The notes: generated by a model not told the origin, from the sequence alone. Numbered from the stretch's first letter, positions 14,299-43,402 are shown. The stretch is DNA of 64,000 nucleotides from Anaerolineales bacterium (GCA_016927115.1 JAFGNH010000080.1:1492-65491), one strand, 5' to 3'. Translations and numbers: made by a program.

Positions 14299-15522
14299 TT
14301 AGACAATCGGCTGGCCGCATTCCTCGCAAAAGCGAATCCCGGCACGGTTCTGTAAACCGCATGCCTGGCAGATGGAGCCTTCTGTCTGAGAGGCCTGTTC
14401 CGGGGCGATACGGCTGCCGCAATGTTCGCAGAACAGCACTCCTGAGCGGTTCGATTTGCCGCACTCTGTGCACACTGGACCGGTACCGGAGGTTGGTGGC
14501 GAGGTGTGCAGTGCAGAGCCGCAGTATTCACAGAAGCGCACCTCAGGGCGGTTGGTCTTGCCGCACTGGTTGCAGATCGGGCCTTCCGATGAAGGAGCCG
14601 GGGCAGGACGTGACTGCGGTTGTATGGCTGGAGCAGGTGTGGAGGCCGGCTGAGCGGCTGGAGGGGCGGGAGGGGCTGTGGAAGCTGGTTGTGCGTCGGC
14701 TTTTTCTGCGGAAGTGGGAATCGCTTCAAGCTGCGTGCGCCATGCTGCTGCGGTTTGCGGGCGGTCAGTACGGCGCGGCTGCATGGCCCAGCGAATGGCT
14801 GCGGCAACCTCCCCTCTGATTTTCGGGTTGATCTTGTCCGGGGGGAGATACTCAGTCTCGCCAATGGCCAGCGAAACGCTGTCCGGCGGACGGGTGGCGG
14901 TAAGCAGCGCATAGAGTGTGGCCCCGAGGGCGTATACATCCGAGGCGGGACTGGAGCTGCTGGCGCTGTACTGCTCCGGAGGGGAAAATCCCGGCGTGAC
15001 GCCGCGTGCGCCAGTGGCGGTGCGGGCATCTTCGGCACCGATCTTGGCAACACCGAAATCCACCAGCACCACCTGACCATCAGGCATCAATTTGATGTTC
15101 TGCGGTTTGATATCGCGGTGCAGAATGGGAGGATCCTGACTATGCAGGTATTCCACCGCGCCGCAGATCTGCAGAATCCAGCGAAGAGCCTGTTCTTCTG
15201 AAAAGGGGCTGTGTTGTGTTTTGATTTGCTCCCAAAGATTCAGTCCGGGGATAAATTCCATCACCAGGTACTGCTGACCCTCATTGGTGAAGTGCTGCAG
15301 TACATGCGGCAGAGAAGGATGGCGCAGTCGGGCAAGAATCAGAGCTTCTTTTTTGAATTGTTCGACAGCCTGCGGCGTGGTGAAATAATTTTCCTTGATG
15401 GCGACAGCCACCTGCAGATTGGTGTCATAGGCCCGGTAGACGGCACCCATGCCGCCGTAGGCCAACAGGCTGTCGATCCGGTAACGGTTTTCAAGGATGG
15501 TATCTTCCGGTAAGGGCATCAC
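14299..15522 (-). CDS. Ser/Thr protein kinase with three C-terminal zinc-ribbon repeats
   Basis: Hanks kinase motifs are present: GGMGAVYRA, VAIK, HRDIKPQN, DFG and SPPE. After a Pro/Ala-rich linker come three CxxCG-x9-FCExCG units (14302..14577). Confidence 0.9.
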   Translation of the reverse strand: MMPLPEDTILENRYRIDSLLAYGGMGAVYRAYDTNLQVAVAIKENYFTTPQAVEQFKKEALILARLRHPSLPHVLQHFTNEGQQYLVMEFIPGLNLWEQIKTQHSPFSEEQALRWILQICGAVEYLHSQDPPILHRDIKPQNIKLMPDGQVVLVDFGVAKIGAEDARTATGARGVTPGFSPPEQYSASSSSPASDVYALGATLYALLTATRPPDSVSLAIGETEYLPPDKINPKIRGEVAAAIRWAMQPRRTDRPQTAAAWRTQLEAIPTSAEKADAQPASTAPPAPPAAQPASTPAPAIQPQSRPAPAPSSEGPICNQCGKTNRPEVRFCEYCGSALHTSPPTSGTGPVCTECGKSNRSGVLFCEHCGSRIAPEQASQTEGSICQACGLQNRAGIRFCEECGQPIV

Positions 15523-18352: not shown

Positions 18353-18407
18353 TAAAAACAGAATAAAAAACAAACAATAATCCATTTAAAAATAATAAGG
18401 AGTGCAT

Positions 18408-19226: not shown

Positions 19227-19228
19227 AT

Positions 19229-20770: not shown

Positions 20771-20811
20771 AACCTGATTATTATCGTATACAGCATTTCT
20801 GGAGGAGAAGT

Positions 20812-22203: not shown

Positions 22204-22302
22204 GACTCTGAAAGGGATCCGGCATAGAGCGGCAGCGGATTTCTTTCCGCTGCCTTTGAGCCGGATCCGGATGGTCCAATCGGCACGGGTGGAACTGCAA
22301 AT

Positions 22303-23787: not shown

Positions 23788-23790
23788 AGT

Positions 23791-25511: not shown

Positions 25512-25512
25512 G

Positions 25513-26586: not shown

Positions 26587-26751
26587 TGCCTGCCGGAGAC
26601 ATACGGCTGGCCCAGCAGTAAACCAGGAGTCTGCAGGCACACGATTCCTGAAAGGAGGCGTACGGAAGGAAAATACGAAGGAACCTGTAAGTAGAGATCC
26701 TGCAGGAGAAGGCTGCATAACTTAAATGAACATGATCGAGAGGAGATCAAG

Positions 26752-27903: not shown

Positions 27904-28235
27904 TCCTTCTCACTTCTGAGACTGATATTCCTGGCATGGTGGTGATCGATACCTCCATGCCAGGACCAACCCGGCAACCGTGACCGTCATTATACTATTG
28001 ATGGATCGCAGGGTGATTTACTACTGGAGACCTGGCAGCATACGGTTGAGAAGAACCGATATTTTTGGTAAAGTACAGGTTCAAAACCGAAATTATCGAA
28101 AGAGAATCCGGACTTCAGAATAACAGAACGGGCTGTCAGGAAAATATGCTTTGCAAACGAGGCCGGTGATGTTGGGCGACTGCCTCTCCCTTGCCGGAAG
28201 TTTGCACAGCTGGAAACTGAAAAACGGGTGGAGCT

Positions 28236-29030: not shown

Positions 29031-29473
29031 AATCAGTTCCAGATAATGTACAGCAGCAGTTTGCTTCCATCTTTCCTTCAGCCTGCCAGGGGATACGGGT
29101 TCTGCAACTGCTGCGGAAATAGTATCCCAACCCCAAAGCCGGGCGAGCAGGGTAAAGATGAATTTATCAGATCACCCCTGGGGGACTTTTTCCTCTGAGC
29201 TTTCAGCGGCACGGCAAACTTTCACACCAGCAGTCCCGCCATATTAACAATACGTTTTCTGTATCCTTCGTCAGGCCGGTATTCGGCTATTTTTTTCCCC
29301 TGGATTTCCTTCTGGAATTTTTTGTGAATACGGTGTTTGCGGACACTATTTCGCAGTTTGATAATGGGGGATAATTATTCTTTTTCGACCCTGGAGGAGA
29401 ATTCTCCAGACAATCTGCTGTATGATGTCAGGTAAAGTGTGGGTACATGTGAGCTTTTGAATAAGGAGGGTAG

Positions 29474-30099
29474 AATTTTCTTACGAATGCCACAATGATA
29501 AGCAGGAATCCAGAAGGAGAGATTAGCGCAAACGTGGCAGTCCTTATCAAAGTGACCATTTTGCAGCAGCAGGGAAAACGAAAGATCTTACTGGAAGATT
29601 CCCCTCAGAAAAAATCTAAAACTGCCAGGGAAACGTGCTTCTACCGGGACTGATTGACACTCATGTGTACAAGGCTCAGGCGTTGATCCGGGAGATGTGT
29701 ATGGTAAGCTATCTGGCAAAACTGCGTGTGCAAGAGCCAACTATGGTGCCTGCAGAAGCAGTTTTGGAGATGGCGACGATCAATGGGTCGAAAGCGATGG
29801 GGTTGGAAGGTCAGATCGGCTCTAACGAGGTTGGTAAGAAGGCCGACTTTATCATTATCGATATGGATAAACCGCATCTTACACCGGCTCCGGATCCTGT
29901 CTCGACAATTGTGTATGCCGCCCATGGCAGCGATGTGGATACCGTGGTCATCGATGGAAGGTCGGTGATGAAACATCGTGAAGTACAAACGTTGGATGAG
30001 CAGTCTATTTTATCTGATGCCCGCAGGCGTTTCCCGGAAGTGAAAAAGCGGGGTGGACTTGATATCAGCCCGCGCTGGCCTGTGGTGCAGCTGTCGTAG
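29474..30099 (+). pseudogene. Decayed amidohydrolase (MtaD/SsnA/cytosine-deaminase-like) gene: frameshifted N-terminus plus a large internal deletion
   Basis: One frame (29474..) reads NFLTNATMISRNPEGEISANVAVLIK, the N-terminal beta-sandwich of metal-dependent amidohydrolases. It is preceded by a TAG and lacks a start codon. A second frame (29635..30099) reads VLLPGLIDTHVY (a degenerate HxH motif), then only about 25 residues later reaches the C-terminal AVLEMATINGSKAMGL...GKKADFIIID...VDTVVIDGRSVM. The total is about 200 codons. Confidence 0.55.
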
Positions 30100-30404: not shown

Positions 30405-30875
30405 CTATCCTCCCAGCAGAAGAAAGAGCAGTGTCCACACAGCAGCTGAAGCGAGTATGGTGCCTGCGAAACGCCGCCGGCTGTCCAGCTTGCAGCGATG
30501 CCGCAGCACTGCTGCAAACAACACCCCACCCCCCAGGTTGACCAGGAGCAGTCCCCAGAACCCTATGAAGAGTTCCATAAACCACGCTGCAGGAAGGATC
30601 ATAAAGCTGAAGATCAACGTAACCCAGAAAGGGCTTTTCCAGCCGGGGGTATCAGTCTCCGGTGGTTCTGATATTTCTTCCATATCAGCGAAACTCACGC
30701 TGGATGGTGTCGGGAAGGCGGCAGGATCAAGCTGCGTGGGTGCCTGCGTATTGAAGGATGAATCTGCAGGCAGTTCTTCTGTTGAAGACAGTTTTTTTCC
30801 ACAAAACCCGCAGAAAACGGCGTCGGAAGGAATTGCACTCCTACAGAAAGGGCAGAAATGCTGAGCTTGCTTCAT
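30405..30875 (-). CDS. Zinc-ribbon membrane protein
   Basis: 156 aa. It has an N-terminal CPFC-x11-CGFCG zinc ribbon, an acidic linker, then 3-4 TM helices. Confidence 0.7.
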   Translation of the reverse strand: MKQAQHFCPFCRSAIPSDAVFCGFCGKKLSSTEELPADSSFNTQAPTQLDPAAFPTPSSVSFADMEEISEPPETDTPGWKSPFWVTLIFSFMILPAAWFMELFIGFWGLLLVNLGGGVLFAAVLRHRCKLDSRRRFAGTILASAAVWTLLFLLLGG

Positions 30876-30927
30876 GATCGTTTCTCCATTACAGAACTCA
30901 TTTCCTGTTCACAGCGGGCTGCAGTTC

Positions 30928-32547
30928 TTATTCTGCCTGCTGCTGAATGTCTGAACTGATGAACCGGCGGGCCAGTGTATGGGCAGAAAAGTACATTGCC
31001 AGGGTTGTAACAAGCGGTGTGAGCCAGATCCATATTTCGAACCATACGTCTCCCAGGCTGAAACCGAAATTGAATCTGCTGAATTCGATAAGGTAATTTC
31101 CAACGGGAGTGGCCAGAGCGAAAGCGGCCCCCCAGAAAAGACCCAGCCAACCAGCCAGTTTCCAATCAGGTTTACGGGGGTTCAACAGGACAACAGTGCC
31201 TGCAGCTGACAGTCCCATGCATAAGAATGACACCAGAGACCAGGACATGTTGGGAGGCAGGTGCCAGCTCCATTCCACGCCGAGCCAGACACGAAGCATG
31301 GACAGGACTACCCACAGCAGCACAGTGCCGCCCATCAGCGGAAGGCTGATCCGGGTGAACTGGCGGATGGCAATCAGTGTGAAGATGCCACCGATGAGGC
31401 CCATAGCAGCGAAAGGCCATACATAATGCATATCAGTTAAGGCAAAGAGTGAGGTGATAACAAGCTCTGCCAGAGCCCAGCCGAGGAAAACCAGGCCAAG
31501 GCTGCTCCATAGTCGCCTGGTGTCGGGCTTTTTCTGCTCTTTTTCAGCAGCCAGTGAGTCGTTCAAAAGCCAGACCAGAAAGGCCCCCAGGAGTATTCCC
31601 ATAAGACCGTACGCTACAAGCGAACCAACATGGATAGCGCGTGCTCTGATACGAAACAGGGGAAACCAGCCGGAGAGCAGGATATACGCAAGGATGAACA
31701 TTCCTGTTATCCCGGTTGCCAACCAGCTGAGTCCCAATCCGAGTGCTTTGCCCCACTGCCGGGACCTGCCGAAGAGGAACAAGCCAAGTACAAGCCCTGC
31801 AACGCCTGGAATCGCGCCTTCGAACAGCATGGATCGCAGCTCCCAGTTAAAATACATTAATGAGTAGCCAATGTTGATCATTGCATACCAGAGAAATGTA
31901 AGGATCAACGTGCCTGCTGCTGCCTGCCACCAGTGTGTCAACCAGCCGTAAAGCCTGAGCAGGATGCAAATTACCCCGCTTGAAAAAAAGCCTAGTACAG
32001 TAAAGAACAGGACAAGGTCGAGGGCAACAATTTGCTTATGGGCCAGGTAGCCTGCAGCACTGCCCAGCATGGTTCCAAGGCCGGTGATCAGTACAATCCA
32101 TCCCGGCATAACCCCCGGTTTTACCGGGGTGCTTTTACGTTCTTTCTTGCGCCGCAGCTCACGCAGTTCCTTCTCCGGAGCTGTCTGCTTCTTCTCCGAT
32201 TTTGATTTTTCCAGTGCATGCCCGCATTCGATGCAGAAGCGTGCATCCACCATATTCATTTTTCCGCACTGCGGGCAGACGGTTCCACCCTGCAGTGATG
32301 GTGGAGGTGCTTCCTCCATCACCTGGGTTGGTGTATCTGCACGATCGATCCGTGTGACTGCATCCATATCAATATCGGGAGGAGAGGCTCCGGCCGGTGG
32401 GGTTTCTGATTGGGCCGGCTGCTGATCTAGTGTTTCTGTATCTGCGTCTATTCCGGGTATTTCCGATGAGGGCGAAAGCCGGGCTCCGCAGTATCCGCAG
32501 AACAGCTTGTCATCCGGGATTTCCTTGTTGCAGTTTGGGCATATCAT
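30928..32547 (-). CDS. Double zinc-ribbon polytopic membrane protein
   Basis: 539 aa. It has CPNC-x11-CGYCG and CPQC-x11-CIECG ribbons, a basic linker (RELRRKKERK), then about 12 hydrophobic helices. Confidence 0.75.
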   Translation of the reverse strand: MICPNCNKEIPDDKLFCGYCGARLSPSSEIPGIDADTETLDQQPAQSETPPAGASPPDIDMDAVTRIDRADTPTQVMEEAPPPSLQGGTVCPQCGKMNMVDARFCIECGHALEKSKSEKKQTAPEKELRELRRKKERKSTPVKPGVMPGWIVLITGLGTMLGSAAGYLAHKQIVALDLVLFFTVLGFFSSGVICILLRLYGWLTHWWQAAAGTLILTFLWYAMINIGYSLMYFNWELRSMLFEGAIPGVAGLVLGLFLFGRSRQWGKALGLGLSWLATGITGMFILAYILLSGWFPLFRIRARAIHVGSLVAYGLMGILLGAFLVWLLNDSLAAEKEQKKPDTRRLWSSLGLVFLGWALAELVITSLFALTDMHYVWPFAAMGLIGGIFTLIAIRQFTRISLPLMGGTVLLWVVLSMLRVWLGVEWSWHLPPNMSWSLVSFLCMGLSAAGTVVLLNPRKPDWKLAGWLGLFWGAAFALATPVGNYLIEFSRFNFGFSLGDVWFEIWIWLTPLVTTLAMYFSAHTLARRFISSDIQQQAE

Positions 32548-32618
32548 GATAGTCTCTTCTCCTGATTAAAATCTGTAAATCACACCGGTTCCTGCTGCCG
32601 GATTCCATATTCTATTTA

Positions 32619-34034
32619 TCAGAATTCTATACCAATTGTGCCGTCAGTTTTGATAAACATGTCACCGCCTTCAAAATCCGGCCGGCTGCCGTCGTGCCAT
32701 ACCATTGTGCCATCCCCTAAAACTTCATCAGGCGGCGGGATTTCTGGGCGGGTATCGTAGCTGCTGTAGTCGGAATCTCCGCTGCCCTGTCGGTCTTCGG
32801 CGTCGATGATCATGTCTATCGGAATAGCTGAAGCAGGCAGAGCCGGGATCTCGCCAGGTTCACCATCAGAAATATCACCTGCAGGGGGAGTGTAATCGTC
32901 CTGGATCATATCAATCGGGATGATATCAGCAGGAAGGACGTTTACAGGATACTCTTCGTCATCCGCAGTACTTCTCCTGTCACTATCCTTGACAGTATCT
33001 CCACCACTGAGATAAGAATCGGCGACAGAAGCGCCAATGGGGACAATAACCTGCAAGGAGCTTAATACCAGATCACCCAAGCCGGCGAAGGTGCGCATGG
33101 TGGGGAAAGTCAGTTTCTCTCCTGTTAGTTCCTCTGCCGTCTCTGCAAGGATCTCATCTGTCAGGGCTGTGTTTGGATCGAGGTTTTTAAGCCGGATCTG
33201 ATTCTCAGAAAGCTCTGGTGCAGCGCGGTCAAGGTTATCAGATCCCATATCTGATGCGGATCCGGATGAGGTTTCAGGAGTGCCGGGATTTTCCTGGCCA
33301 GTTTCGATTTCCGATGAATCCGGAGCAGGTATTGCAGCAGTTTCAAGAGGCTGCTGTGCTGCCCCGCCGCTGTTTTGTACCACAAATAGACCGGATTCGC
33401 TCTTAAGTACAAGGGGCGGGATCGTGGCTTCAAGGACAACAGAAAGGGGTTCTGCACCTGACTCAAGGGTGGGGATATCCAGGGTCTGTCCCGGGAAAAT
33501 CGTACCAGGGTTGTCACCGATAATACTTCGGTTGGCTTCGTGGATCAGCGGCCATAGTTCGGCGCGGCCGTAATAGCGCAGTGCCAGGCTGGACAGCATC
33601 TCACCCTCGGCGACCGTATGTTCCGTCAGGATAGTTCGTTCCAGCTTGGGCGTTTCAGCCGATTCCGGGACAGTTTCATCCTGGCGGCTGAGGTAAATCT
33701 GTTCTACAGGACTGTTTTCACGAATAAGCTTTGATGCCTCGCTTTTTTCGAAAACGGGGATCTCCTTGAGCGGGTCCTGTAAGCCTTTAACAAACGCTTG
33801 CGGCTCTGTTTCGACTGAATCAAGGTATTCCTGGAAGGCGCCCTTGAAGGCTTCAACAAGGTTCTCTAAAAGTGATGTGAATAATGTCTGGATTGCTTCA
33901 GCGTTGGAGTAATCGAGGATTCTCTCCAGGAAAGAACCGGGTTCATGGTTCAAATCATCCAGCTCGCTGCTTTCCAGCGAACCGCTATCAAATGTCTCCA
34001 TCGGGTCAACAAGTGAAAAAATATCGTCGTTCAT
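32619..34034 (-). CDS. Leaderless LysM-domain protein (short paralog)
   Basis: The LysM domain is HTVAEGEMLSSLALRYYGRAELWPLIHEANRSIIGDNPGTIFPGQTLDIP. The N-terminal segment EPGSFLERILDYSNAEAIQTLFTSLLENLVEAFKGAFQEYL is homologous to the N-terminus of the 1096-aa protein. The protein ends in GTIGIEF and has no signal peptide. I preferred the ATG at 34034 (AGGA upstream). The ORF-track GTG at 34058 is an alternative. Confidence 0.8.
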   Translation of the reverse strand: MNDDIFSLVDPMETFDSGSLESSELDDLNHEPGSFLERILDYSNAEAIQTLFTSLLENLVEAFKGAFQEYLDSVETEPQAFVKGLQDPLKEIPVFEKSEASKLIRENSPVEQIYLSRQDETVPESAETPKLERTILTEHTVAEGEMLSSLALRYYGRAELWPLIHEANRSIIGDNPGTIFPGQTLDIPTLESGAEPLSVVLEATIPPLVLKSESGLFVVQNSGGAAQQPLETAAIPAPDSSEIETGQENPGTPETSSGSASDMGSDNLDRAAPELSENQIRLKNLDPNTALTDEILAETAEELTGEKLTFPTMRTFAGLGDLVLSSLQVIVPIGASVADSYLSGGDTVKDSDRRSTADDEEYPVNVLPADIIPIDMIQDDYTPPAGDISDGEPGEIPALPASAIPIDMIIDAEDRQGSGDSDYSSYDTRPEIPPPDEVLGDGTMVWHDGSRPDFEGGDMFIKTDGTIGIEF

Positions 34035-34089
34035 CTTTCTTTCCTTTGTTCGCTCCACCTTGCATGTGAAACAAAGAGTGCGAAACCGA

Positions 34090-34824
34090 CTATATTGCAG
34101 GTGCCTCCTCTTTTTTCTGGCTGAGATGGCGGATCAGGAGCTGGTTGGCAGCCTGGAACTGTTTCAGTTCCTCAGATGGGAATGGGAACCGTGCGTTCGC
34201 CATACCCAGGACCAGCAGGCAATATGCCAGGTTACCCAGATGAGCTGATGAAATGTAGGCCTGGGTGATCCCCAGCGAACGCCAAAGATGAGCTAACGCG
34301 AATCGCCAGGTTGTTTGCAGCGGATCCTGCTCTTTTTCCGGCTTTGCGGCGTTTTCTTCCAGCATCTGATGCAGGAGCGAGTAGTCCGGATGGCTGATGA
34401 GCACGAAGTGCCCGTAGCGGCAGGGAGCTGCACAGTATTGGCAGCCCCGGGATTTCCTGAGGCGGTTCTGTTCGCTTGATCGACCGGGTGAACCGGCCAG
34501 GAGCGCCATCAAGGTGCTGAATACCCAGGCAGCACGTGGAGACTGGTGGGCAAGCCGGGCTGAGTGCGTGAGAGTTCCTGCAAACCTCTCATTGGGAGTC
34601 TGCTTTGCCAGGTAGAATTCGATGATTTTTTGGCAGGCCTCGGGAACTGTTTCAGCAAAGTATGCTGGAGTTTTCAATCCGGCGCGCTGAGCCAGTGCCT
34701 GGCGCAGCGGTCCTCCGGCCTGTTTGAAGTTATAGATATGCTCCGGCGGGCAGAAAGACAGAAGGTGCAGATAACTCGCTGTTTGCTGCAATCCCTGGGG
34801 AAGATGTTTTTCTGTTTGAGTCAT
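34090..34824 (-). CDS. Cys-rich protein of unknown family (paralog of 38237..38953)
   Basis: 244 aa with AGGAGG upstream. Blocks conserved with its paralog are SYLHLLSFCPPE, RGCQYCAAPCRYGHFVLIS and HLGNLAYCLLVLGMANARFPFP. Confidence 0.7.
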   Translation of the reverse strand: MTQTEKHLPQGLQQTASYLHLLSFCPPEHIYNFKQAGGPLRQALAQRAGLKTPAYFAETVPEACQKIIEFYLAKQTPNERFAGTLTHSARLAHQSPRAAWVFSTLMALLAGSPGRSSEQNRLRKSRGCQYCAAPCRYGHFVLISHPDYSLLHQMLEENAAKPEKEQDPLQTTWRFALAHLWRSLGITQAYISSAHLGNLAYCLLVLGMANARFPFPSEELKQFQAANQLLIRHLSQKKEEAPAI

Positions 34825-34882
34825 ATTTTTCCTCCTCTTAACGCTGTGGTGGAGTCCGAATGAACAGGTCCAACCGGTTTTG

Positions 34883-37800
34883 TTAGAACTCGATAGTCAC
34901 ACCACCGGGTTCCCCGCCGGTTTGAAGGAATTCACGGAGTTCTCCCGAAGGAATCCAGTCATCTTTGATCATGCCGCGCTGGTACAGCTCCTGCATTCGA
35001 TCCAGGCGATTGTCTCCGGCGCCGGCAGTGGTCTGCAGTTTGAAATCGAAATTGATATTAACCAGGTCTTGAAGGCCGAGTTGGAGAAGATCGTCACGAT
35101 TGAGGATATCGTCGCGATTGAGGATGTCATCACGGTTGAGGATATCCCAGCGAACCGTGGTGGGCAGATCAGCATAGTTGAGAATACCTCCCTGACTCGG
35201 GATGCAGATTTCTTTCAGGACTGAGGGCCAGGTTTCTGCGGATGGAAATGCTGCCTCCCGCAGGGAAGAATACAGGCTGGCGGGTATGGCCGATGCCGGG
35301 ATTGCTCCAGCGGCAACTTCCTGGCCGATAAAAATCTTCGTCCATGTGGTAAGCTGGTCGCCGGAAATGTTGTTCGCTATCTCCCTGTAGTCCGAAGTGC
35401 TGAGCCAGCTGAAATCCTTCTCCATCAGGGGAATATATTCGGTGGTGTTAACCCACTGGATCATTTCATTCCGGACACTGGCGGGGATGGCGGAGGCAGG
35501 GATGGCCTGGTTTCTGAGATCGTCAAAGAGCTCCCATTTCATACTGGCGGGAATGGCACTGGCTGGGATGGCACTGATTTTCTCGGCCAGAATGCTGGCG
35601 GGGATAGCGCGGGTGAACTCGTTCATGATGCTGGCGGGTATCGCCCGCGATCCGCCTTCACCGGCATTAAAAATTTCCACCATCAGGCTGGCTGGAATGG
35701 CGGAAGCCGGGATGGCGCTGGCAGGAATAGCGCGGGCAAGGGTTTCAAGCATACTGGCAGGGATTGCATCGGCGCTGAGCTCACCGGTATTCACCATGGA
35801 AATTAGGTCTGACGGACCCAGTGAATTCATCACACTGGCAATCTCTGACCGCAGGCTGGCCGGGATGGCGGAGGCCGGAATGGCTGATTGGATGTCCAGG
35901 AGGATGCTGGCGGGGATGGCGGAAGCTGGAATGGCAGAGGCTGGAATAGCACCAGCATCGATGTCTTTGAAAATCTCGACATATATACTGGCGGGAATTG
36001 CTGATGCCGGGATGGCCGACGCCGGGATGGCGCTGGCGGGTATGGCGCTGGCCGGTATTGCCTCGGCAATCGCCTGTAAAAGGCTGGCTGGAATAGCGGA
36101 AGCCGGGATGGCACTTGCCGGGATGGCCTGGGCCAGGTCCTGCAGGGCACTGGCGGGGATGGCTGAAGCCGGGATCGCTCCGTTTTCAATCCGGTTAAGG
36201 ACGGCTCCGAGGAAATCATCGCGGTTGAGAATATCATCTCGATTCAGGATATCATCGCGGTTGAGAATTTCCATCAGAACGTCAGGATCGAAGGCACCGG
36301 GGTTTACAGGATGGGCATACAGGTCCCCGGCTGCCAGCCGCTCCATCACACCATCGAAGAAGCCTGTGGGGATCTGGTCCAGGGGTACAGAGTTCAGGAT
36401 GTCTACCAGTTTTTCACTGGCGATTCCCTGCAGCAGGAAGGGTTCTTCGGCCGCGATCCGGCACAGCCGCTCATCGGGAAACAGCGAAAGGTATTCTGAG
36501 CTGCTCCAGTTCTTTGCCAGCCAACTGCTGGCGAGCAGCGGGTCCACAAGCGAATCAGTCATATCTGAAACGCTGATCCGTCCATCGTGCAGCGCCTGGG
36601 CGATCTGTTCGTACTGCTTAACCGGCAGCCATTCCGCGTCGTAATCACCCGAACTGATACCGGAGAGCAGGTCGTTCACATCGGCGGGAAGCTGCAGCTG
36701 GCCGCTATCATACAGGTCACGGGCGTAGGAGGGCAAAATCGATGGTTTCAGGCCGTGATTGAGCATCAGATCGTGTATATCCTCGCTGCTCAGCTGCTCA
36801 TCAAAGTACTCCCAGAACCCATCCTGCAGTAAGGCGCAGTTGTCGGGCAATAAAATATCACCTTCGCCGGTGCTGGCACAGGCGGTGATAAACGCACTGA
36901 GGGAATCCCTGTTCATCTGATCGAACGGCATGGCACCGGTCCACACGGCACGGGCGATCCCATCGAGCCTTTCAGGCGGCAGCTCGGAGGGCTGGATGTC
37001 TCCGGAAACAACTCGTTTCATAAAGTTACTTCCCATATCAGGAGCTTCATAGTCGGAAGCGCTGCGCGCCTCGTTGACCACGCCGGTGAGCCCGAAGATG
37101 GTCGTCTTTACACCTTCAGGCGCTTCGGCGGGCATATCGGCTGTATCTTTGGCGGCACCGCCTTCAGCCACTGCTGCAGAAGCACCCGCTTCCGCTGCTT
37201 CTGCACCCGCATCCGCATCCGCTCTATCGCCGGCGGCTTCAGCCGCTTTGCTGACTTCTTCACCCGGTTCGGCAGGCATTATTACCTGTGGTGCTTCAGC
37301 GACTCCACCAGTAACCGAAGCCCGCCCGGGATCCTGGGCAGGGATGGCAGGCGAATCTTCGTTGAAGTCAGGCATTGCATCGGCATCTGCTGGAGCGGTA
37401 TCCGAGACGGCTGCAGTACCAACTGCGGGAGCGGCAGCCTCCACGGGAGCGGCTGTATCTGCTGCTGGTGCAGTCTGCTCAGGGGGCTGGTAGGAAGCTG
37501 TCTCTACCGGCGTGTAGGTGCTCGGTGAGATCACTGTGCCCGGTCCGGGAGATGAGTCCAGTGGAGGGATCACAAATTCCTGCCCGGGATAAATCATGTT
37601 GGGGTTTTCACCAATGACAGCCTGATTGGCTTTATAAATCGCAGACCACATGGCTGCGTTTCCATAATAGTGCAGTGCAAGATGGGAGAGCGTTTCACCC
37701 TCAGACACAGTGTGTTCTGCTGCGGAGCTGGTTTCGACAGGTGTGCGCTGTTCACCCGAATCCGATACAGTACTGGAAGCAGAAGGTGTCTCTGTGAGAT

Positions 37801-38173
37801 GTGTGGATGATGCTCCGGTTGTTTCCACCATCTCCTTTTTAAACTCATCCAGCGCCTTGTCGACAAGTTCCTGGACCTCACTCTCACTGTACAGGTTTTC
37901 CTCATTCTGAAGCGGGGCTTCCAGTTCCTGCTGGAATGCCTCCGTATCGGTATGGACGATCGAGATATACTCCTGGTATGCGTCTTTGACTGCACCAGAG
38001 AGATTTTTTGCCAGGCTGACAAAGAAAGATTGAATGGCTTCAGCACTGACGTAGGAAAGGATGTTCTCAAGAACAGACCCCGGTTCCCTGACTGCCCGGT
38101 CGAGAGTTTCCAGGCCGGTTCCCATTTCTTCTGTAATTTTTGTGTCCTCAATGTGTTTATTCAAGTTGTCCAT
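34883..38173 (-). CDS. Leaderless LysM-domain giant protein with AIPAS and ILNRDD repeat arrays
   Basis: 1096 aa. It has an N-terminal domain shared with the 479-aa paralog, a LysM domain (37565..37714), an Ala/Pro/Glu-rich linker, a unique central domain, and then 27 perfect AIPAS units in 12 clusters bracketed by two ILNRDD triplets. It ends in GGVTIEF. No signal peptide or TM helix is present. Confidence 0.85.
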   Translation of the reverse strand: MDNLNKHIEDTKITEEMGTGLETLDRAVREPGSVLENILSYVSAEAIQSFFVSLAKNLSGAVKDAYQEYISIVHTDTEAFQQELEAPLQNEENLYSESEVQELVDKALDEFKKEMVETTGASSTHLTETPSASSTVSDSGEQRTPVETSSAAEHTVSEGETLSHLALHYYGNAAMWSAIYKANQAVIGENPNMIYPGQEFVIPPLDSSPGPGTVISPSTYTPVETASYQPPEQTAPAADTAAPVEAAAPAVGTAAVSDTAPADADAMPDFNEDSPAIPAQDPGRASVTGGVAEAPQVIMPAEPGEEVSKAAEAAGDRADADAGAEAAEAGASAAVAEGGAAKDTADMPAEAPEGVKTTIFGLTGVVNEARSASDYEAPDMGSNFMKRVVSGDIQPSELPPERLDGIARAVWTGAMPFDQMNRDSLSAFITACASTGEGDILLPDNCALLQDGFWEYFDEQLSSEDIHDLMLNHGLKPSILPSYARDLYDSGQLQLPADVNDLLSGISSGDYDAEWLPVKQYEQIAQALHDGRISVSDMTDSLVDPLLASSWLAKNWSSSEYLSLFPDERLCRIAAEEPFLLQGIASEKLVDILNSVPLDQIPTGFFDGVMERLAAGDLYAHPVNPGAFDPDVLMEILNRDDILNRDDILNRDDFLGAVLNRIENGAIPASAIPASALQDLAQAIPASAIPASAIPASLLQAIAEAIPASAIPASAIPASAIPASAIPASIYVEIFKDIDAGAIPASAIPASAIPASILLDIQSAIPASAIPASLRSEIASVMNSLGPSDLISMVNTGELSADAIPASMLETLARAIPASAIPASAIPASLMVEIFNAGEGGSRAIPASIMNEFTRAIPASILAEKISAIPASAIPASMKWELFDDLRNQAIPASAIPASVRNEMIQWVNTTEYIPLMEKDFSWLSTSDYREIANNISGDQLTTWTKIFIGQEVAAGAIPASAIPASLYSSLREAAFPSAETWPSVLKEICIPSQGGILNYADLPTTVRWDILNRDDILNRDDILNRDDLLQLGLQDLVNINFDFKLQTTAGAGDNRLDRMQELYQRGMIKDDWIPSGELREFLQTGGEPGGVTIEF
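35090..35143 (-). repeat. 3 x 18-bp in-frame repeat encoding ILNRDD-ILNRDD-ILNRDD (C-terminal copy)
   Basis: The units are atcgtcacgattgaggat, atcgtcgcgattgaggat and gtcatcacggttgaggat. They are identical as peptide and differ at synonymous sites. Confidence 0.9.
35276..36178 (-). repeat. Coding repeat region: 27 AIPAS pentapeptide units (15 bp each) in 12 clusters separated by short amphipathic spacers
   Basis: Read directly from the sequence. For example, gctggcgggtatggc reverse-complements to GCC ATA CCC GCC AGC, cgatgccgggattgc to GCA ATC CCG GCA TCG, and tgaagccgggatcgc to GCG ATC CCG GCT TCA. The cluster sizes are 2,3,5,3,2,1,3,1,1,2,2,2. Confidence 0.9.
36215..36268 (-). repeat. 3 x 18-bp in-frame repeat encoding ILNRDD-ILNRDD-ILNRDD (N-terminal copy)
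   Basis: The units are atcatcgcggttgagaat, atcatctcgattcaggat and atcatcgcggttgagaat. It lies immediately upstream (in protein terms) of the AIPAS region. Confidence 0.9.
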
Positions 38174-38236
38174 GAGTACCTCGAGCGTTCTTATTGGCAG
38201 ATGCAGTGTCAGTGGTGTGTGTTGGTTCCTGTCGGG

Positions 38237-38953
38237 TCAAACGTGTGCGGCGTTGGCCGGCCAGCCGGCAATCAGGGCCTGGTTCCACTCCTGAAAAGAA
38301 GCCAGTTCGGATTCGGGAAACGGGAGGCGGGATTTGGCCATGGCCAGAACCAGCAGGCAGTAGCTCAGGTTTCCCAGGTGGTACGGGCTGATGTACCCCT
38401 GCCGGGTTCCCAGAGTTCGCCACAGATGACTGGTAGTAAAAGACCAGGTGGCTTTGAGCGTGCCGCCGGGGTCCCTGCTGTTTTCGTGCTGCTCAAGCAG
38501 TTTCTGCAGCAGGGTGTATTCAGGCCGTGAAACGAGCACGAAAAATCCATAACGGCAGGGTGCCTGGCAAAACTGACAGCCGCGTGACGGGCGCAGCCGT
38601 TTGTTTTTTTCCGTCCGGGAGGGCAGGGAGCAGATGCGGTCCATCTGCTGTTGAAACAGATAGGCGGCTTCAGGGCTTTCCTGTGCAGTTTGTGCAGCCC
38701 GGCTTAAATCATTTTTTAGCTTTTGATCCGGGATGGGCAGGCGCTGGTGGAAAGCAGTGATACGGCGGCATGATTCAGGGATTGTGCGTGCGAAAAATTC
38801 CGCCTCCGGCAGGTCCGCCTGCAGAGCCAATCCACTGCGGAGAGGAAGGCCTGCCTGTGCAAGAGCATGAATCTGGTCCGGCGGGCAGAAGGAAAGAATG
38901 TACAGGTAGCTGATAGAGGCTTGTATTTCCTGCACGGTGAGAGAATCAGCCAT
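38237..38953 (-). CDS. Cys-rich protein of unknown family (paralog of 34090..34824)
   Basis: 238 aa with GGAG upstream. The conserved blocks are SYLYILSFCPPD, RGCQFCQAPCRYGFFVLVS and HLGNLSYCLLVLAMAKSRLPFP. Confidence 0.7.
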   Translation of the reverse strand: MADSLTVQEIQASISYLYILSFCPPDQIHALAQAGLPLRSGLALQADLPEAEFFARTIPESCRRITAFHQRLPIPDQKLKNDLSRAAQTAQESPEAAYLFQQQMDRICSLPSRTEKNKRLRPSRGCQFCQAPCRYGFFVLVSRPEYTLLQKLLEQHENSRDPGGTLKATWSFTTSHLWRTLGTRQGYISPYHLGNLSYCLLVLAMAKSRLPFPESELASFQEWNQALIAGWPANAAHV

Positions 38954-39004
38954 GGGGTTTTCTCCTTCAAACGATACGGTGGAGGCTGGTTATCGGGTGG
39001 TTCA

Positions 39005-41803
39005 CTACCGTTCCAGCCGCGGCATCGGTGTGTAGAATATTTTGGTCCAGGAGGGCATATCATCCTGGAAGCCTGCAATGATCGCCTGGCCGACTTTCAG
39101 GCGGGCGATGACTTCAGCCTGTTCTTCCTTGAGAGCCAGTGTGCCGGCCATGGTCTGGCGGTCATCAGCGGCGACAAGGCGATGAATGATCTTGAGATTG
39201 GTATTCTTGAGCGCATCGGGCACCAGTTTGGCAGGCACCTGGTCGATAATGGCAAGGCCCTGGCCGTAGGCACGTATTTCCGCGAGGATGTCGGCAAACA
39301 TCTCGCCCATCTTGGCTTGTGGGTTGGCACCGTAGGCAGTCTGAGGCGCCGCACGCAGGATGCGGTGCGCCTCTTCAAAGATGGCCAGGTGGCGCAGATC
39401 ATGCGATTCAGGGGACCCTTCCAGTTCATGCTGTGCCTGACGGTATTCGTACATGAAGTTCAGCAGCAGTGCCATGGTGAGGCACTTGTCGGCATCATCG
39501 CCCATCTGCTGCAGGTTGATTACGACCGGCCGGTCGAACAGGTCTGCCCAGGGGGTGGACTGCTGGCAGTTGAAGGTTTTTCCCTTCCAGCCGCGCAGCA
39601 GGCTGCCAATTCGTGTACGCAGGGCGGCGGTAATATTATCGGTGATACGCTGTTCGTACCCCTTGGATTTCACCAGATCAGAAATTCGATCATAGAGGTT
39701 TTCAAGAGTCGGGCAGCACACACCTGCCGGAGGCAGTTTATCCTGTAGCCATCCCTGGCTGTCATAGAGATCGACCAGGGCTTCTTCGAGAATGACGGGC
39801 AGGATCTCCTGCATCGGAAAGCTGGCGTTGAAGATAGACCGCAATCGGTCCAGGTGCGGCATCACCTGGGCTGTTGCATCCGGCAAACGGACAATGTCGA
39901 ACGGGTTAAGCTGCAGACTGTTGAGTTTCTCGCTGCCCCATTCCGTCCGTCCGGGCATATACACTGCTATTTTGCGATCAAAGGTGCCGGCCTGGTTATA
40001 GGCCAGTGCAAGCTGGACGTATTCCTCTTTCGCAGGTTCAATCACCATGAAGTTGACGTTTCGCTGCATCAGCTCTGAGATCAGCCGGCGGCAAGTATTG
40101 GATTTACCGCTGCCGGTGATTCCGGTGACGAAAACATGCCGCGTGAGTGAATTCAGATCCACTTCATAGGTGAGGTTCCCAACTTCTTCTCCGCCGTCCA
40201 GTATGGCGCCAAGCCGGATCGGATTTTCTTCCTTGCATATGGTGGGCGGGTTCAGGCTGAAACTGGCTGTGGGTTGAACAGGCAGCCCGGGCAGTTCACG
40301 CAGGGGAAGATTCGCGTACAGGGAGAGTTCTTCGGTGTTCAACAGAGTGGTCAGGTTTTCAAAGGCTTCCCCCAGCGGGTGGTGTACACGGTTTGCACTA
40401 TCCGGGGCGAACAGGCGCAGCGGAGGCTGTCGGAAAGCATCCAATGATACCTGGACTTGCCCATCCCAAACAGGATGCAGGTCATGGACCCGGATGGGTT
40501 CAAAGGCGCTTTTTTCACCGCTGACCAGGGCTTTCAGTTGTGATTGGGCCTGGGCGGTGGTTTCAGCCTGATCGCTCATGAGATACACCCCGACATTCCA
40601 GCAGCCCTTGCCGCGGGCAATTTCGAAGCGGGTGACGGTTTCCTGGAGAAGCTGTTCACAGGCTTCGGCGTGTTTGTTGAGGTATTCACGGCCGAAGGAA
40701 AGCGACTCGCTGGAGGATGTGCTTTCGGTGTCGGTGGTGCCGGCGGTCTCGCCGCGGGTCTGTCCGATTGAGCTTGAGGTGCCGCTGGAGGTGGAAGTAG
40801 AGGAAGAGGGCAGCAGCTGGCCGAACATACCCAGCATTCCCGATAGGGCGAAGCCACCCGCCAGCGGGATCATCAGCGCGCCGGCACCGGCCAAACCGAG
40901 TGCCTTCAACCCCTTCCCCACACCGCTGGAATCTGACAGAGCGGTTCCCAGGGCACCACGGCTGCGGCTTTCACTTGAACCGGTGGTGGTGCCCTCCGTC
41001 TCCGATGTAGAACTGCTGTAGCTGACAGAACGGGCGGAACTTTGGGAGGAACTGTCGCTGGTGCTGCGCTGAATGGTGGCTTTCGTAAAAGCGTGGATCT
41101 GGCTGGAAAGGGTACGGCAGTCGTGGATGATCTGGTTTACGCTGCTCTCAGGAACAGGATTGGCAAGTACCATGTACAGGTAGGGTTTACCGCGCAAGCC
41201 GCGCATGAACTGATCAAGGCTCTGGGGGTAGTCCGACGGTTTATCGGATTCGATGGGAGAAGGGATACCCGTGAACGAACGGGCAAAGCGGTATTCACTG
41301 AGAGGAATATGGATTTTACGGACGATCTCGTTGTAATCAGAAACGGCTTTAACCCTGGTCCCGGGCCAATTGGAACACAGGAACTGGCCGAGCTGGTCGG
41401 CAAACAGGCGCGGCTGCCCTCCCGGTGCTTGCGTCAGGATACCGATATAGATATCTGAGCGGAATCCATCGCTACTGATAAGGAACAGCAGGGAATAGCG
41501 CGGGTCGTGGCAGGCAGCAAGGGTGGTCTGGATGGCGCGCAGGTTCCTGGAGAAATCCTCGCTGACAGGCTGGCCAACCTGTTCCAGATGGAAAAAGGCC
41601 ACATCAGGAGGGGGAGGTGGTGCTTCCTCAAGCACACGGACATAGTTGGCGTCGAAGATGGGGCCGTCCAGATAGTTCCTGCTGAGAGCGAACAGCATTG
41701 CGCGTGAAATCAAGTCCCCGGTCGTGGTCAGCATTTCAACCGGAAGCTGATCCAATGGTTCCAGGTCTGTTGGGGCGGGTTCAATGGAGTGGTTCTCTGT
41801 CAT
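39005..41803 (-). CDS. HerA/FtsK-superfamily P-loop ATPase (DUF87-like) with a novel N-terminal domain and a Ser/Thr-rich, Gly-rich hydrophobic insert
   Basis: 932 aa. It has Walker A VTGITGSGKSNT, Walker B HLAIFEEAHRIL and the C-terminal NTNLKIIHRL. Residues ~246-369 (40697..41068) are Ser/Thr low complexity. They flank GLKALGLAGAGALMIPLAGGFALSGMLGMFGQLL, a probable membrane segment. Confidence 0.8.
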   Translation of the reverse strand: MTENHSIEPAPTDLEPLDQLPVEMLTTTGDLISRAMLFALSRNYLDGPIFDANYVRVLEEAPPPPPDVAFFHLEQVGQPVSEDFSRNLRAIQTTLAACHDPRYSLLFLISSDGFRSDIYIGILTQAPGGQPRLFADQLGQFLCSNWPGTRVKAVSDYNEIVRKIHIPLSEYRFARSFTGIPSPIESDKPSDYPQSLDQFMRGLRGKPYLYMVLANPVPESSVNQIIHDCRTLSSQIHAFTKATIQRSTSDSSSQSSARSVSYSSSTSETEGTTTGSSESRSRGALGTALSDSSGVGKGLKALGLAGAGALMIPLAGGFALSGMLGMFGQLLPSSSTSTSSGTSSSIGQTRGETAGTTDTESTSSSESLSFGREYLNKHAEACEQLLQETVTRFEIARGKGCWNVGVYLMSDQAETTAQAQSQLKALVSGEKSAFEPIRVHDLHPVWDGQVQVSLDAFRQPPLRLFAPDSANRVHHPLGEAFENLTTLLNTEELSLYANLPLRELPGLPVQPTASFSLNPPTICKEENPIRLGAILDGGEEVGNLTYEVDLNSLTRHVFVTGITGSGKSNTCRRLISELMQRNVNFMVIEPAKEEYVQLALAYNQAGTFDRKIAVYMPGRTEWGSEKLNSLQLNPFDIVRLPDATAQVMPHLDRLRSIFNASFPMQEILPVILEEALVDLYDSQGWLQDKLPPAGVCCPTLENLYDRISDLVKSKGYEQRITDNITAALRTRIGSLLRGWKGKTFNCQQSTPWADLFDRPVVINLQQMGDDADKCLTMALLLNFMYEYRQAQHELEGSPESHDLRHLAIFEEAHRILRAAPQTAYGANPQAKMGEMFADILAEIRAYGQGLAIIDQVPAKLVPDALKNTNLKIIHRLVAADDRQTMAGTLALKEEQAEVIARLKVGQAIIAGFQDDMPSWTKIFYTPMPRLER

Positions 41804-41830
41804 CAGGAAGCCTTTCAGCGATAGGCCGGC

Positions 41831-43402
41831 TCAGTCCTGAGCAAGCCGGTAGCGGATCGATCCGATGCGGATTTCATCTCCCTGGCGGAAGATGGTTGGC
41901 TGCTGTGGTGCAATACAGGCAGCGTTGAGATATGTTCCATTCGTGCTGCCCAAATCCACCAGGTAGAAAACCTCGCCATCTTTCCTGATTTCTGCATGGA
42001 AGCGGGAGGCCAGATCATCTTTGACCCAGACATCATTCCGGCTTTTCCTGCCGAGGGTTGTGATTCCTTTTATAAGCGGGTATTTCTCTCCGTTTTCCGA
42101 GACAAGATACCAGGCCTCCTGTTTGTTTTCGTCGGACGAGGCAAATGAAATGGTGGGCTGAGGTGCCGGGGTTTTTAAGGAAGAGCGGTTTTGTGAAATG
42201 CCGTATTCGAGTGCAACGCCTTTTACGACAATTTCCTCGGGGTTATCGGAGAGAAGGATTCGATCTTCGCCGAACTGATCGCGCAGGTGACGTACGATGG
42301 TAAACAGCTGTGAACCGCCACCCACCAGAACCACCTGATGGATATCCTCTATAGTGATTCCCATCGACTTGAGTGCGTTTGAGATCAGGTATTCAAAATC
42401 CGCAATCAGGTGGCGGGCGATACCCAGAAATGTGTCTTCCTCGAGCTGCACGGTGCTGCGAAATACGGAACCATCCCGCATAACCACGGTTATAGTACGC
42501 CTTGGTGTATGGAAGGTGCCGCTGGAGTTGAGCAGCTGGCGGCTCAGCGATTCTTTTAATTTACGGGCAGCATTACGCAGCGATATCAGTGCTGTGGGGT
42601 CATCTGCCAGAGCGTGTGCAGGAATTTCAAGTTTTTCAATGAGGTATTTTGCCAGTTCTGCATCATATAATCCGCCCCCGTGAGGTTCCCCGTAGTGGTG
42701 GGTGAATTCAATCTCTCCGGTCCGGGGATTGACTTTTCCGGCGACCATATCAGTTGTGCTTCCGCCGACATCAGCGATCAGGGTAAGGCCTTCAGGCCTG
42801 TCAGACTGCAGAAGTCCCTGGTGATACAGGCTGAGAATAGCTCCTTCAGGTTCCGGAATAAAGCGAATGCGTTCATGCATTGGTGGTTCGAAACAGGCAA
42901 GAATAATCTGTTTGAAGTCGTTAAGAATGCTGCCATCGTAGCCGAACTGCCAATAGACGGGATAGGCAAAGGAAAATCGGATCTGGTTGTTGAAAGGTTT
43001 GTTATACCATTTTTCTTCCTGAAGTTGATTCAAGACAGATTGCAGCAGCATACTGGTGTACGTCAGCGCCTGGTTATGCGTATAACGTTTCTGGTGCGGG
43101 AGGGGCGTTTTTTGCAAATGGGCTCCGATACATGGTTTGAAGTATTCGCGGATTCTTTCACGCACGTCCTCCTGGTCCATCTGTTGTGAAACGGTTTCGC
43201 CGTAGCTTTCAAGTGCTGTTCCGTCTGCGTTCATAAGCAGGGCGGCGGGGAGGTGACGGTCATAGAAGCTTGTGAGGGGGGAAGGCTGCGGATCGCTGAG
43301 CATATGAATGGAGTTTTGCTGGTGGAGATACTCCACGCGGTAAAGACGCCAGTTCGTTGCTCCACAGTCAAAGGCGAAAAGCGTTTCCTGTTGTCCGGTC
43401 AT
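41831..43402 (-). CDS. Hsp70/actin-fold ATPase fused to a C-terminal FHA domain
   Basis: 523 aa. The sugar-kinase/Hsp70/actin motifs are FAFDCGATNWR (phosphate-1), IADVGGSTTD (phosphate-2) and VVLVGGGSQ (adenosine). There is no Hsp70 substrate-binding domain. The C-terminal FHA is TLGRKSRNDVWVKDDLASRFHAEI...LVDLGSTNGTYLN...GDEIRIG. Confidence 0.8.
   Translation of the reverse strand: MTGQQETLFAFDCGATNWRLYRVEYLHQQNSIHMLSDPQPSPLTSFYDRHLPAALLMNADGTALESYGETVSQQMDQEDVRERIREYFKPCIGAHLQKTPLPHQKRYTHNQALTYTSMLLQSVLNQLQEEKWYNKPFNNQIRFSFAYPVYWQFGYDGSILNDFKQIILACFEPPMHERIRFIPEPEGAILSLYHQGLLQSDRPEGLTLIADVGGSTTDMVAGKVNPRTGEIEFTHHYGEPHGGGLYDAELAKYLIEKLEIPAHALADDPTALISLRNAARKLKESLSRQLLNSSGTFHTPRRTITVVMRDGSVFRSTVQLEEDTFLGIARHLIADFEYLISNALKSMGITIEDIHQVVLVGGGSQLFTIVRHLRDQFGEDRILLSDNPEEIVVKGVALEYGISQNRSSLKTPAPQPTISFASSDENKQEAWYLVSENGEKYPLIKGITTLGRKSRNDVWVKDDLASRFHAEIRKDGEVFYLVDLGSTNGTYLNAACIAPQQPTIFRQGDEIRIGSIRYRLAQD

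Follow-up and report, generated by a model that had tools for sequence, protein, structure and literature searches.

Several secretion systems encode an accessory protein beside the protein that it serves. In Type VII secretion such pairs are EspG with the PE/PPE proteins and EsaE or Lap with the LXG toxins, with EccC or EssC, of the FtsK family, as the ATPase. In the Type VI and Type III secretion systems (T6SS and T3SS) an adaptor or chaperone (DUF4123, Eag/DUF1795 and class I chaperones) is encoded directly upstream of its cargo, and cassettes of the two are found duplicated. A further case is the 'EccE3-HerA' ATPase of extended Type III-A CoCoNuT loci, in which an EccE3-like N-terminal domain with a β insertion is fused to a VirB4-like ATPase; it shares an operon with a small helical protein, Hsp70-like and Ser/Thr-kinase genes lie nearby, and the authors also consider a role in secretion (Bell et al., 2024, eLife, PMC11090510). 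Here we describe an operon of an Anaerolineales bacterium (GCA_016927115.1) that resembles these loci in layout. It lies on the minus strand of a 64,000-nucleotide stretch (JAFGNH010000080.1:1492-65491), which as a whole we call the window and in which positions are counted from the first letter, and it contains two paralogous genes for Cys-rich proteins (CysA and CysB), each standing directly upstream of a gene for a LysM protein (LysMA and LysMB, respectively).

Comparison with related genomes places these genes in a conserved Anaerolineae module. Judged by sequence, CysA and CysB represent two paralogous copies of the module's third core gene, and LysMA and LysMB are the window lineage's version of its clients, which are acidic proteins tagged with a common N-terminal leader. 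The reading that we favour, with a probability of about 0.42, is that the Cys-rich protein would be a partner of the module's ATPase that binds a metal through four Cys residues and engages the leader-tagged clients. The module as a whole probably handles or exports acidic proteins that carry one N-terminal tag. The genes and segments on which this reading bears are as follows.

41831..43402, minus strand: Hsp70 nucleotide-binding domain (NBD) with a C-terminal FHA domain (Hsp70-FHA), first gene of the module; Pfam and PDB matches
39005..41803, minus strand: 932-residue HerA/DUF87-type P-loop ATPase; matches to Pfam DUF87 and to HerA chains in the PDB
38237..38953, minus strand: CysA, 238 residues, the 'primary' Cys-rich copy, predicted all-helical, 51 nt after the ATPase gene
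38555..38578, minus strand: codons of the CysA CxxCxxxC motif (GCQFCQAPC), invariant alignment columns
38357-38359, minus strand: fourth universal Cys of CysA, C199
34883..38173, minus strand: LysMA, 1096 residues, isoelectric point (pI) 4.1 (4.11), without a signal peptide
37994-38110, minus strand: acidic leader of LysMA, residues 22-60, matched by a leader hidden Markov model (HMM)
37565-37714, minus strand: LysM domain of LysMA, residues 154-203; Pfam and PHROG matches
34090..34824, minus strand: CysB, 244 residues, the second Cys-rich copy, with universal Cys C128, C131, C135 and C202
32619..34058, minus strand: LysMB, 479 residues from a GTG at 34058, pI 4.05
33849-33974, minus strand: leader of LysMB, residues 29-70 (leader HMM)
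33471-33620, minus strand: LysM domain of LysMB, residues 147-196; Pfam and PHROG matches

The original prediction, made from the window alone, had read 32619-38953 as a tandem duplication of a two-gene cassette. All four reading frames lie exactly where it placed them, on the minus strand, and the gaps to the downstream LysM genes are 63 nt (CysA to LysMA) and 31 nt (CysB to LysMB).

The module was surveyed in 49 loci using tblastn and all-against-all clustering of open reading frames (ORFs). The Cys-rich gene is present in all 49, Hsp70-FHA in 44, the HerA-type ATPase in 43, leader proteins in 33 and a linked Ser/Thr kinase in 28. The gene order is Hsp70-NBD/FHA, HerA-type ATPase, Cys-rich gene and then from zero to seven client genes; the Cys-rich gene follows directly 3' of the ATPase gene in 43/49 loci with gaps of 35-60 nt, the ORF calls overlapping in L050 and L051. 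A leader protein is encoded immediately after the Cys-rich gene in 26-27 of 41 cases and in most of the others clients are found further on; the gene next to a Cys-rich gene that lacks an adjacent client encodes a lipoprotein, a small FHA protein or another product. Homologs had been expected to be linked to LysM or N-domain genes. Linkage to the leader-bearing N-domain is indeed strong, but LysM occurs in one subclade only, and the most general linkage is not to LysM but to the HerA-type ATPase and Hsp70-FHA. The earlier reading was thus partly right, in linking an accessory protein to its clients and probably in suggesting a metal site at the Cys cluster, and too narrow in taking LysM as the partner and the pairing as one-to-one. 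Two kinds of neighbour recur in these loci. Lipoproteins with a Sec/lipobox signal and Pro/Glu-rich repeats, ending ...NNALNxxKVK, are encoded between Cys-rich and leader genes in ten loci (L013, L017, L018, L026 and L001 among them), and a 213-residue stand-alone FHA protein is encoded directly after the Cys-rich gene in four.

All 46 genome-derived loci with the Cys-rich family come from metagenome-assembled genomes (MAGs) of Anaerolineae/Chloroflexota. Within this group the distribution is patchy: of the 401 class genomes sampled two carry the family, as do three of 61 relatives, and it was not found in the single other genome of the window's genus. PADLOC assigned no family to CysA, CysB, LysMA, LysMB or Hsp70-FHA and gave only the generic HerA/mad8 for the ATPase. 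By these comparisons the Cys-rich family and the module fall outside every catalogued system tested. No description of the module was found in the literature, the nearest item being that of Bell et al. (2024; PMC11090510).

Over an alignment of 225 residues that runs end to end, CysA is 48% identical to CysB (E = 2e-79), which is far beyond chance and bears out the proposal that they are paralogs; the blocks quoted in support of it, SYLxxLSFCPP, RLRxSRGCQxCxAPCRYGxFVLxS, HLWRxLG and HLGNLxYCLLVLxMA, are all found in both. Five invariant Cys had also been reported. This holds among close relatives only: across 55 members just four are universal, namely C126, C129 and C133, which form the CxxCxxxC motif within the block RLxxxxGCxxCxxPCxYG, and the distal C199 (CysA numbering). 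The Cys of FCPP is retained in approximately 30 of the 54 intact members and is otherwise Ser, Thr, Ala, Val, Ile or Gly. Further invariant polar residues are R113, R119, H176, N195, R209 and Q221. The Cys-rich proteins have a basic pI (median 8.9). We note that six relatives (P0025, P0031, P0033, P0037, P0038 and P0045) carry strongly basic N-terminal extensions of 30-90 residues, rich in Lys, Ala and Pro, which CysA and CysB lack; such tails would suit the binding of polyacidic clients or nucleic acid.

The family could not be placed, as had been the case from the window alone. A word-indexed search of 5.8 billion clusters returned 45 relatives, and a profile search that covered all of 1.84 billion representatives gave 61 members, with many fragments among them, but brought up no distant relatives. 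Neither CysA nor CysB is matched by a family of Pfam, NCBIfam, PADLOC or PHROGs, and a profile search of the PDB gave noise only (E = 0.08). The AlphaFold2 model of CysA, built from a 31-sequence alignment, is all-α with 12 helices (predicted local distance difference test score, pLDDT, 89.9; predicted template-modelling score, pTM, 0.88). A Foldseek search with this model against the PDB and BFVD gave a best template-modelling score of 0.22 and nothing at E ≤ 0.001, so that no characterized enzyme family was matched either in the profile libraries or by fold.

Several identities were considered for the Cys-rich protein and set aside. A radical SAM enzyme is contradicted by the motif, which is CxxCxxxC and not CxxxCxxC, a distinction already drawn in the original prediction, and by the absence of a Pfam or NCBIfam match and the all-helical model. 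A peptidase and a ferredoxin were rejected on motif spacing, the all-α fold and the lack of matches. The spacing does fit the Fe4S4 (FS0) domain of the molybdopterin oxidoreductases (PF04879), but no Pfam family was found at E ≤ 0.01 and there was no sequence or fold match in the PDB.

The four universal Cys residues probably form a metal site. We take the CxxCxxxC spacing to be identical to that of the FS0 [4Fe-4S] motif of MopB, which serves here as a lead only. Both MopB FS0 and FNR-type sites (CxxCx5C plus a distal Cys) likewise combine three close Cys residues with one distant one; in the predicted CysA model C199 lies inside a helix, 66 residues from CxxCxxxC. Unlike MopB FS0, the Cys-rich protein has no Molybdop_Fe4S4 match and is a predicted all-helical bundle in which the distal Cys is within a helix. 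The four residues could be explained as well by a structural Zn(Cys)4 site as by a [4Fe-4S] cluster.

The clients form a cluster of 101 proteins from 33 loci, with variable C-terminal parts and a common N-terminal leader. The leader is acidic and approximately 50 residues long, with the consensus EEQALDDATHEPGARVEQTGDYEQAEAVE and the pattern E-Q-x-L-D-D-A-T-x-E-P-G-x-x-V-E-Q-x-x-x-[YF]-x-Q-[AS]-E-A-[IV]-[EQ]. The clients have a pI of about 4, their leader regions have a net charge of -0.20 per residue, and no signal peptide was found in any of them. A leader HMM built from the clients of other genomes only, with the window proteins excluded, matches LysMB (E = 3e-9, residues 29-70) and LysMA (E = 7e-6, residues 22-60). 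Both proteins also share the other properties of the client family: they are acidic, have no N-terminal hydrophobic segment and are encoded downstream of the Hsp70-FHA, HerA and Cys-rich genes. Clients other than the LysM proteins contain short β-hairpin, WW-like or immunoglobulin (Ig)-like repeats, and no enzymatic or toxin domains were found among them.

That LysMA and LysMB share an N-terminus had been noted before, and this stands; the common stretch takes in the LysM domain and spans approximately 200 residues (35% identity, E = 9e-38), not about 70. Since the leader HMM matches both, this common region consists of the family-wide leader, a helical region specific to the subclade and LysM. 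Searched as N-terminal fragments of 210 residues, the two LysM domains score 23.3 and 23.2 bits and pass the Pfam cut-off of 20.9; the full-length proteins score 20.8 and 21.7 bits. Both resemble the wall-binding module of phage endolysins in PHROGs (E = 6e-17 and 4e-13), and the LysM part of the NCBIfam Kbp/YgaU family matches with E = 3e-12. LysM clients are restricted to the window's subclade, that is, to L004, L006, L050, L058 and one Joint Genome Institute (JGI) contig (that of P0007).

LysMA consists of the acidic leader, a helical N-domain, LysM, a central domain, AIPAS arrays and a C-terminus ending ...TIEF, while the C-terminal half of LysMB is acidic, Pro-rich and fast-evolving and ends ...GIEF. 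The AIPAS pentapeptide arrays of LysMA (35090-36268) have ILNRDD triplets on either side; the ortholog in L050 keeps both at the peptide level despite an overall identity of 65%, although the number of units differs. The start of LysMB is ambiguous, lying either at the GTG at 34058 or at an ATG at 34034 (471 residues; public call P0107). The C-termini of LysMA and LysMB (34883-34904 and 32619-32640) and of their L050 and L058 orthologs all end [ST/G/E]-I-[EQ]-F (TIEF, GIEF, SIEF, TIQF, EIEF), an ending that is missing from a third LysM paralog in L058 and from the L004 and L006 clients. It may be a docking or strand-addition motif.

In the family tree CysA and CysB are sisters (97/88) within a clade (99/98) that also contains L004 and L006, which are the sole other LysM-client loci in the tree. 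The order CysA, LysMA, CysB, LysM client is conserved in L050 and L058. Orthologs in these two loci are 78-80% identical for CysA, 72-80% for CysB and 65-73% for LysMA (65% by BLASTP; 69-73% in MAFFT alignments). The LysMB ortholog in L058 is g469 (65% identity), and in L050 a 411-residue protein matches the N-terminal half of LysMB only (48.5% over 241 residues, E = 2e-68, BLASTP). Measured against the L050 and L058 orthologs, both Cys-rich copies have ratios of nonsynonymous to synonymous substitution (dN/dS) of 0.05-0.14, with dS saturated. CysA and CysB are real genes and both are under purifying selection.

Extra Cys-rich copies have also arisen independently of the window's duplication. 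A secondary clade (100/100) of seven loci has a client of approximately 430 residues always immediately 3', and this client has its own leader subtype, 'ATYEADAHVEQSG', while the remaining clients in these loci keep 'ATHEPGARVEE'. Further independent copies are present in L001, in L026 and on another contig of the window's own genome (C136). These extra copies adjoin a leader protein or sit one lipoprotein gene away from one.

Of the upstream partners, Hsp70-FHA matches Pfam HSP70 (E = 1e-18, residues 180-405) and FHA (E = 4e-19, residues 448-514), has no substrate-binding domain, and in the PDB matches DnaK NBDs and the FHA domains of GarA and OdhI. The ATPase, which is 63-70% identical to those of the 43 loci, has a single P-loop domain at approximately residues 530-925, with DUF87 at E = 1e-12 (49 bits against a cut-off of 23), the motifs GITGSGKS and IFEEAH, and HerA chains in the PDB at E = 1e-9; FtsK_SpoIIIE is a 60-residue Walker A match only, and the NCBIfam models ser_rich_anae_1, CedD and HerA all fall below their cut-offs. 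On this evidence it is assigned to the HerA/FtsK superfamily and to nothing narrower. Its N-terminal 520 or so residues contain Ser/Thr-rich stretches flanking a Gly-rich hydrophobic segment (residues 301-327, Kyte-Doolittle) and have no Pfam match at E ≤ 10. The AlphaFold2 model of the 932-residue protein is poor (pLDDT 47, pTM 0.32).

The mechanism that would follow from the favoured reading can be outlined. The Cys-rich protein would be soluble and basic (pI ~9), with Zn or a [4Fe-4S] cluster bound through its four universal Cys residues. It would act together with the ATPase and, in the role of receptor, adaptor or holdase, engage the acidic client leader, which its own basic charge complements, and hand clients to the ATPase. 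The kinase would phosphorylate the Ser/Thr-rich loops of the ATPase and the FHA domain of the Hsp70-like partner would read them, so that activity is gated. LysMA and LysMB, having an endolysin-type peptidoglycan-binding domain and no Sec signal, would be moved to the cell wall. That clients may end in the wall is suggested by their LysM, Ig-like and repeat modules, the lack of signal peptides, the lipoprotein neighbours and the ATPase, which has a hydrophobic segment and belongs to a pumping superfamily (FtsK/HerA/VirB4). CysB would stem from duplication of a Cys-rich-plus-client segment in the window lineage and would have been kept to serve one or more additional, diverged LysM clients. We infer the adaptor role, the metal and the export step alike. 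A bolder version, in which the kinase, Hsp70/FHA, HerA and the four-Cys protein make up an unrecognized phospho-gated export or surface-assembly pathway of filamentous Chloroflexota, with the Cys-rich protein a metal-dependent leader receptor of new fold and CysA and CysB extending the client range to wall-anchoring LysM proteins, seems to us doubtful.

A number of observations weigh against an adaptor that engages clients. Typically a single Cys-rich gene accompanies several clients (0-7). In L058 two Cys-rich genes accompany three LysM clients, the third LysM paralog following directly after CysB and the true LysMB ortholog lying two genes beyond. Leader distances correlate with those of HerA (r = 0.83) as well as with those of the Cys-rich protein (r = 0.82; partial correlations 0.39 and 0.36, Mantel), and since the leader tracks HerA equally well this co-variation does not point to the Cys-rich protein in particular as reader of the leader. 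The association of a Cys-rich clade with LysM clients may simply reflect that one subtype of the locus was inherited from a common ancestor. As to export, no channel protein is common to the loci, and LysM of the Kbp/YgaU type is found in cytoplasmic proteins too. None of 44 homologs of the client C-terminal modules has a Sec signal, all of them carrying a leader or being truncated, and they therefore give no independent proof of extracellular action. The tightest linkage of the Cys-rich gene is to the ATPase, which a fixed ATPase subunit would explain equally well.

This last explanation is the strongest competitor. In it the Cys-rich protein would belong to the HerA-type ATPase as a subunit with a structural or regulatory role, such as a lid that senses redox state or metal, or an assembly factor, and would have no client specificity; CysB would be a by-product of a segmental duplication in which a client gene was copied as well. 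The constant position close behind the ATPase gene, with overlapping ORFs in two loci, agrees with it, as do the single copy that accompanies anything from zero to seven clients, the lipoprotein or FHA gene that in some loci takes the place next to the Cys-rich gene, and the distance correlation between the Cys-rich protein and HerA, the strongest of the three pairs (r = 0.87, Mantel). What it explains poorly is the extra copies: several have arisen independently (in the window lineage, the seven-locus clade, L001, L026 and C136) and adjoin leader proteins, not the ATPase, the seven-locus clade is tied to a distinct leader subtype, and both window copies are under purifying selection across three lineages. 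We consider a fixed subunit unlikely on balance, but it remains a strong rival to the leader-engaging partner.

Far less probable is that the Cys-rich protein is a maturation enzyme, a leader peptidase or modifier, possibly Fe-S dependent, that acts at or near the leader. The maturase idea was raised in the original prediction; the invariant R113, R119, H176, N195, R209 and Q221 could form an active site, and polymorphic proteins that carry a conserved leader are reminiscent of leader-guided processing. The protein nevertheless has no likeness to a peptidase, a radical SAM enzyme or any other enzyme family or fold, its motif spacing is not that of radical SAM, and the predicted helical bundle offers no recognizable catalytic scaffold.

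We regard as improbable to the same degree that the module is an intracellular conflict, defence or nucleic-acid system, with HerA and an effector, in which the Cys-rich protein (perhaps with an Fe-S cluster) would be the effector or a DNA- or RNA-binding partner and the acidic proteins would be decoys, scaffolds or regulators. Among named families the ATPase best matches HerA helicases, CedD, anti-phage HerA and PADLOC mad8/HerA, with scores well short of the family cut-offs in every case; the distribution is as patchy as that of accessory systems; the basic tails of some homologs are like those of nucleic-acid binders; and EccE3-HerA with its small helical protein belongs to CoCoNuT defence loci (PMC11090510). 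Against this, the genes conserved among the 49 loci include no defence effector such as a nuclease, Sir2 or a methylase, PADLOC matches nothing except generic HerA, the LysM, Ig-like and β-hairpin repeat modules of the clients are typical of surface proteins, and lipoprotein genes are interspersed in the loci.

A strict one-to-one arrangement, with each Cys-rich protein the dedicated chaperone or maturase of the LysM protein encoded next to it, matches the layout of the window, of L050 and of the JGI contig of P0007, and the constant partner of the seven-locus clade, but it is the least probable of these accounts and fails on the one-to-several ratio of most loci or the non-client gene next in line, on the order in L058 and on the restriction of LysM to one subclade, so that the accessory-cargo layout originally described is a local feature.

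The operon itself comprises eight consecutive ORFs on the minus strand (30405-43402) with intergenic gaps of 27-71 nt. Beyond the genes listed above, it and its surroundings contain the following.

30928..32547, minus strand: 539-residue protein with two N-terminal zinc ribbons and approximately 8-10 hydrophobic segments; Pfam Zn_Ribbon_1 and DZR
30405..30875, minus strand: 156-residue zinc-ribbon protein with C-terminal hydrophobic segments, which closes the contiguous operon; Pfam
14299..15522, minus strand: Ser/Thr protein kinase with zinc ribbons; by tblastn, C99:15796-17010 corresponds to window positions 14305-15519

The 539-residue protein, next in the operon after LysMB with a 71-nt gap, is the sole polytopic membrane protein of the cluster and has an ortholog (61% identity) at the equivalent position in L058; the 156-residue protein is 33% identical to Zn202 of L058. 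In L058, the closest long relative, two genes that the window lacks stand between CysB and the LysMB ortholog (region L058:9556-13634); they encode the third LysM-leader paralog (507 residues, ending GWIGW) and a zinc-ribbon/Ig-like protein (328 residues). The L058 operon ends with a kinase gene. Its ortholog in the window (79% identity) lies approximately 15 kb from the operon, separated from it by a sugar-utilization/ABC-transporter locus and a decayed amidohydrolase zone (15969-30099), which looks like an insertion into the operon tail; a g171-like gene (~11256-11657) comes after the kinase.

The window's genome contains a second, more typical copy of the module outside the window, on contig C136 (C136:1203-10425).

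C136:8812-10425: Hsp70-FHA
C136:5622-8423: HerA, 64% identical to the window HerA
C136:4855-5585: primary Cys-rich gene, broken into three overlapping ORFs (frameshift or assembly error)
C136:3182-4663: 493-residue leader protein
C136:1203-1955: intact secondary Cys-rich gene

Elsewhere in the same genome a kinase gene lies beside a leader-protein gene on C100, and another client is encoded on C85.

If the bolder version were right, the module would represent a new type of secretion system, with both a signal and a receptor family peculiar to it. How Sec-less proteins are placed on the unusual Chloroflexota envelope, notably that of the filamentous Anaerolineae, is poorly understood, and the locus is a compact candidate, combining an orphan four-Cys family, linkage to a pumping-type ATPase, an FHA-Hsp70 and a kinase, and an easily recognized leader that some 100 polymorphic acidic proteins of the loci sampled have in common. 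The duplicated cassettes amount to a natural experiment in specificity, with two accessory paralogs and two or three client paralogs in one operon. Should the Cys-rich protein prove to be an adaptor for export, it and the leader would define a new pair of receptor and signal, and perhaps also a new route of secretion; should it not, there would still be a new (predicted) metal-binding fold attached to a HerA-type machine.

Set against the systems with which we began, the module has several features in common with Type VII secretion. Besides the accessory gene beside its client, the two share a conserved helical N-terminal targeting region on variable C-terminal parts, an ATPase of the FtsK/HerA superfamily and FHA domains in the machinery, and the [YF]xxxE spacing of the leader recalls what we take to be the YxxxD/E export motif of Type VII substrates. 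Unlike EccC and EssC, which have three FtsK domains in tandem, the module ATPase has one HerA/DUF87 P-loop domain. The Cys-rich protein resembles EspG, EsaE and Lap neither in sequence nor in fold; no WXG100/LXG, EccB/D/E or EssA/B family occurs among the window proteins, the gene calls of relatives or the conserved clusters; and the four-Cys motif, the core Hsp70-NBD partner and the kinase set the module apart from Type VII.

The EccE3-HerA loci share with the module a HerA/VirB4-like ATPase, a large non-ATPase N-terminal domain and an adjoining small helical protein. Their helical protein is likened to the Cys-rich protein by description, the profile search with the latter having given 61 members whose genome-derived loci are all from Chloroflexota MAGs. 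Unlike CoCoNuT loci, the module has no McrBC/CoCoNuT genes, and leader-tagged client arrays are not described for those loci. With T6SS and T3SS the module has in common the accessory gene directly upstream of its cargo and the duplicated cassettes, and it has both domain types of the T6SS PpkA/Fha threonine-phosphorylation switch, in which a kinase and an FHA protein gate the secretion ATPase or its assembly. It differs from both in having none of their structural genes and in being built from unrelated protein families, and its clients share an N-terminal leader, not the PAAR/VgrG-binding or chaperone-binding domain of T6SS and T3SS cargo. At the level of function the module would find its nearest analogies in the chaperone/adaptor-substrate pairs of Type VII secretion and the adaptor-effector cassettes of T6SS; every testable defining component of these two systems is missing from it.

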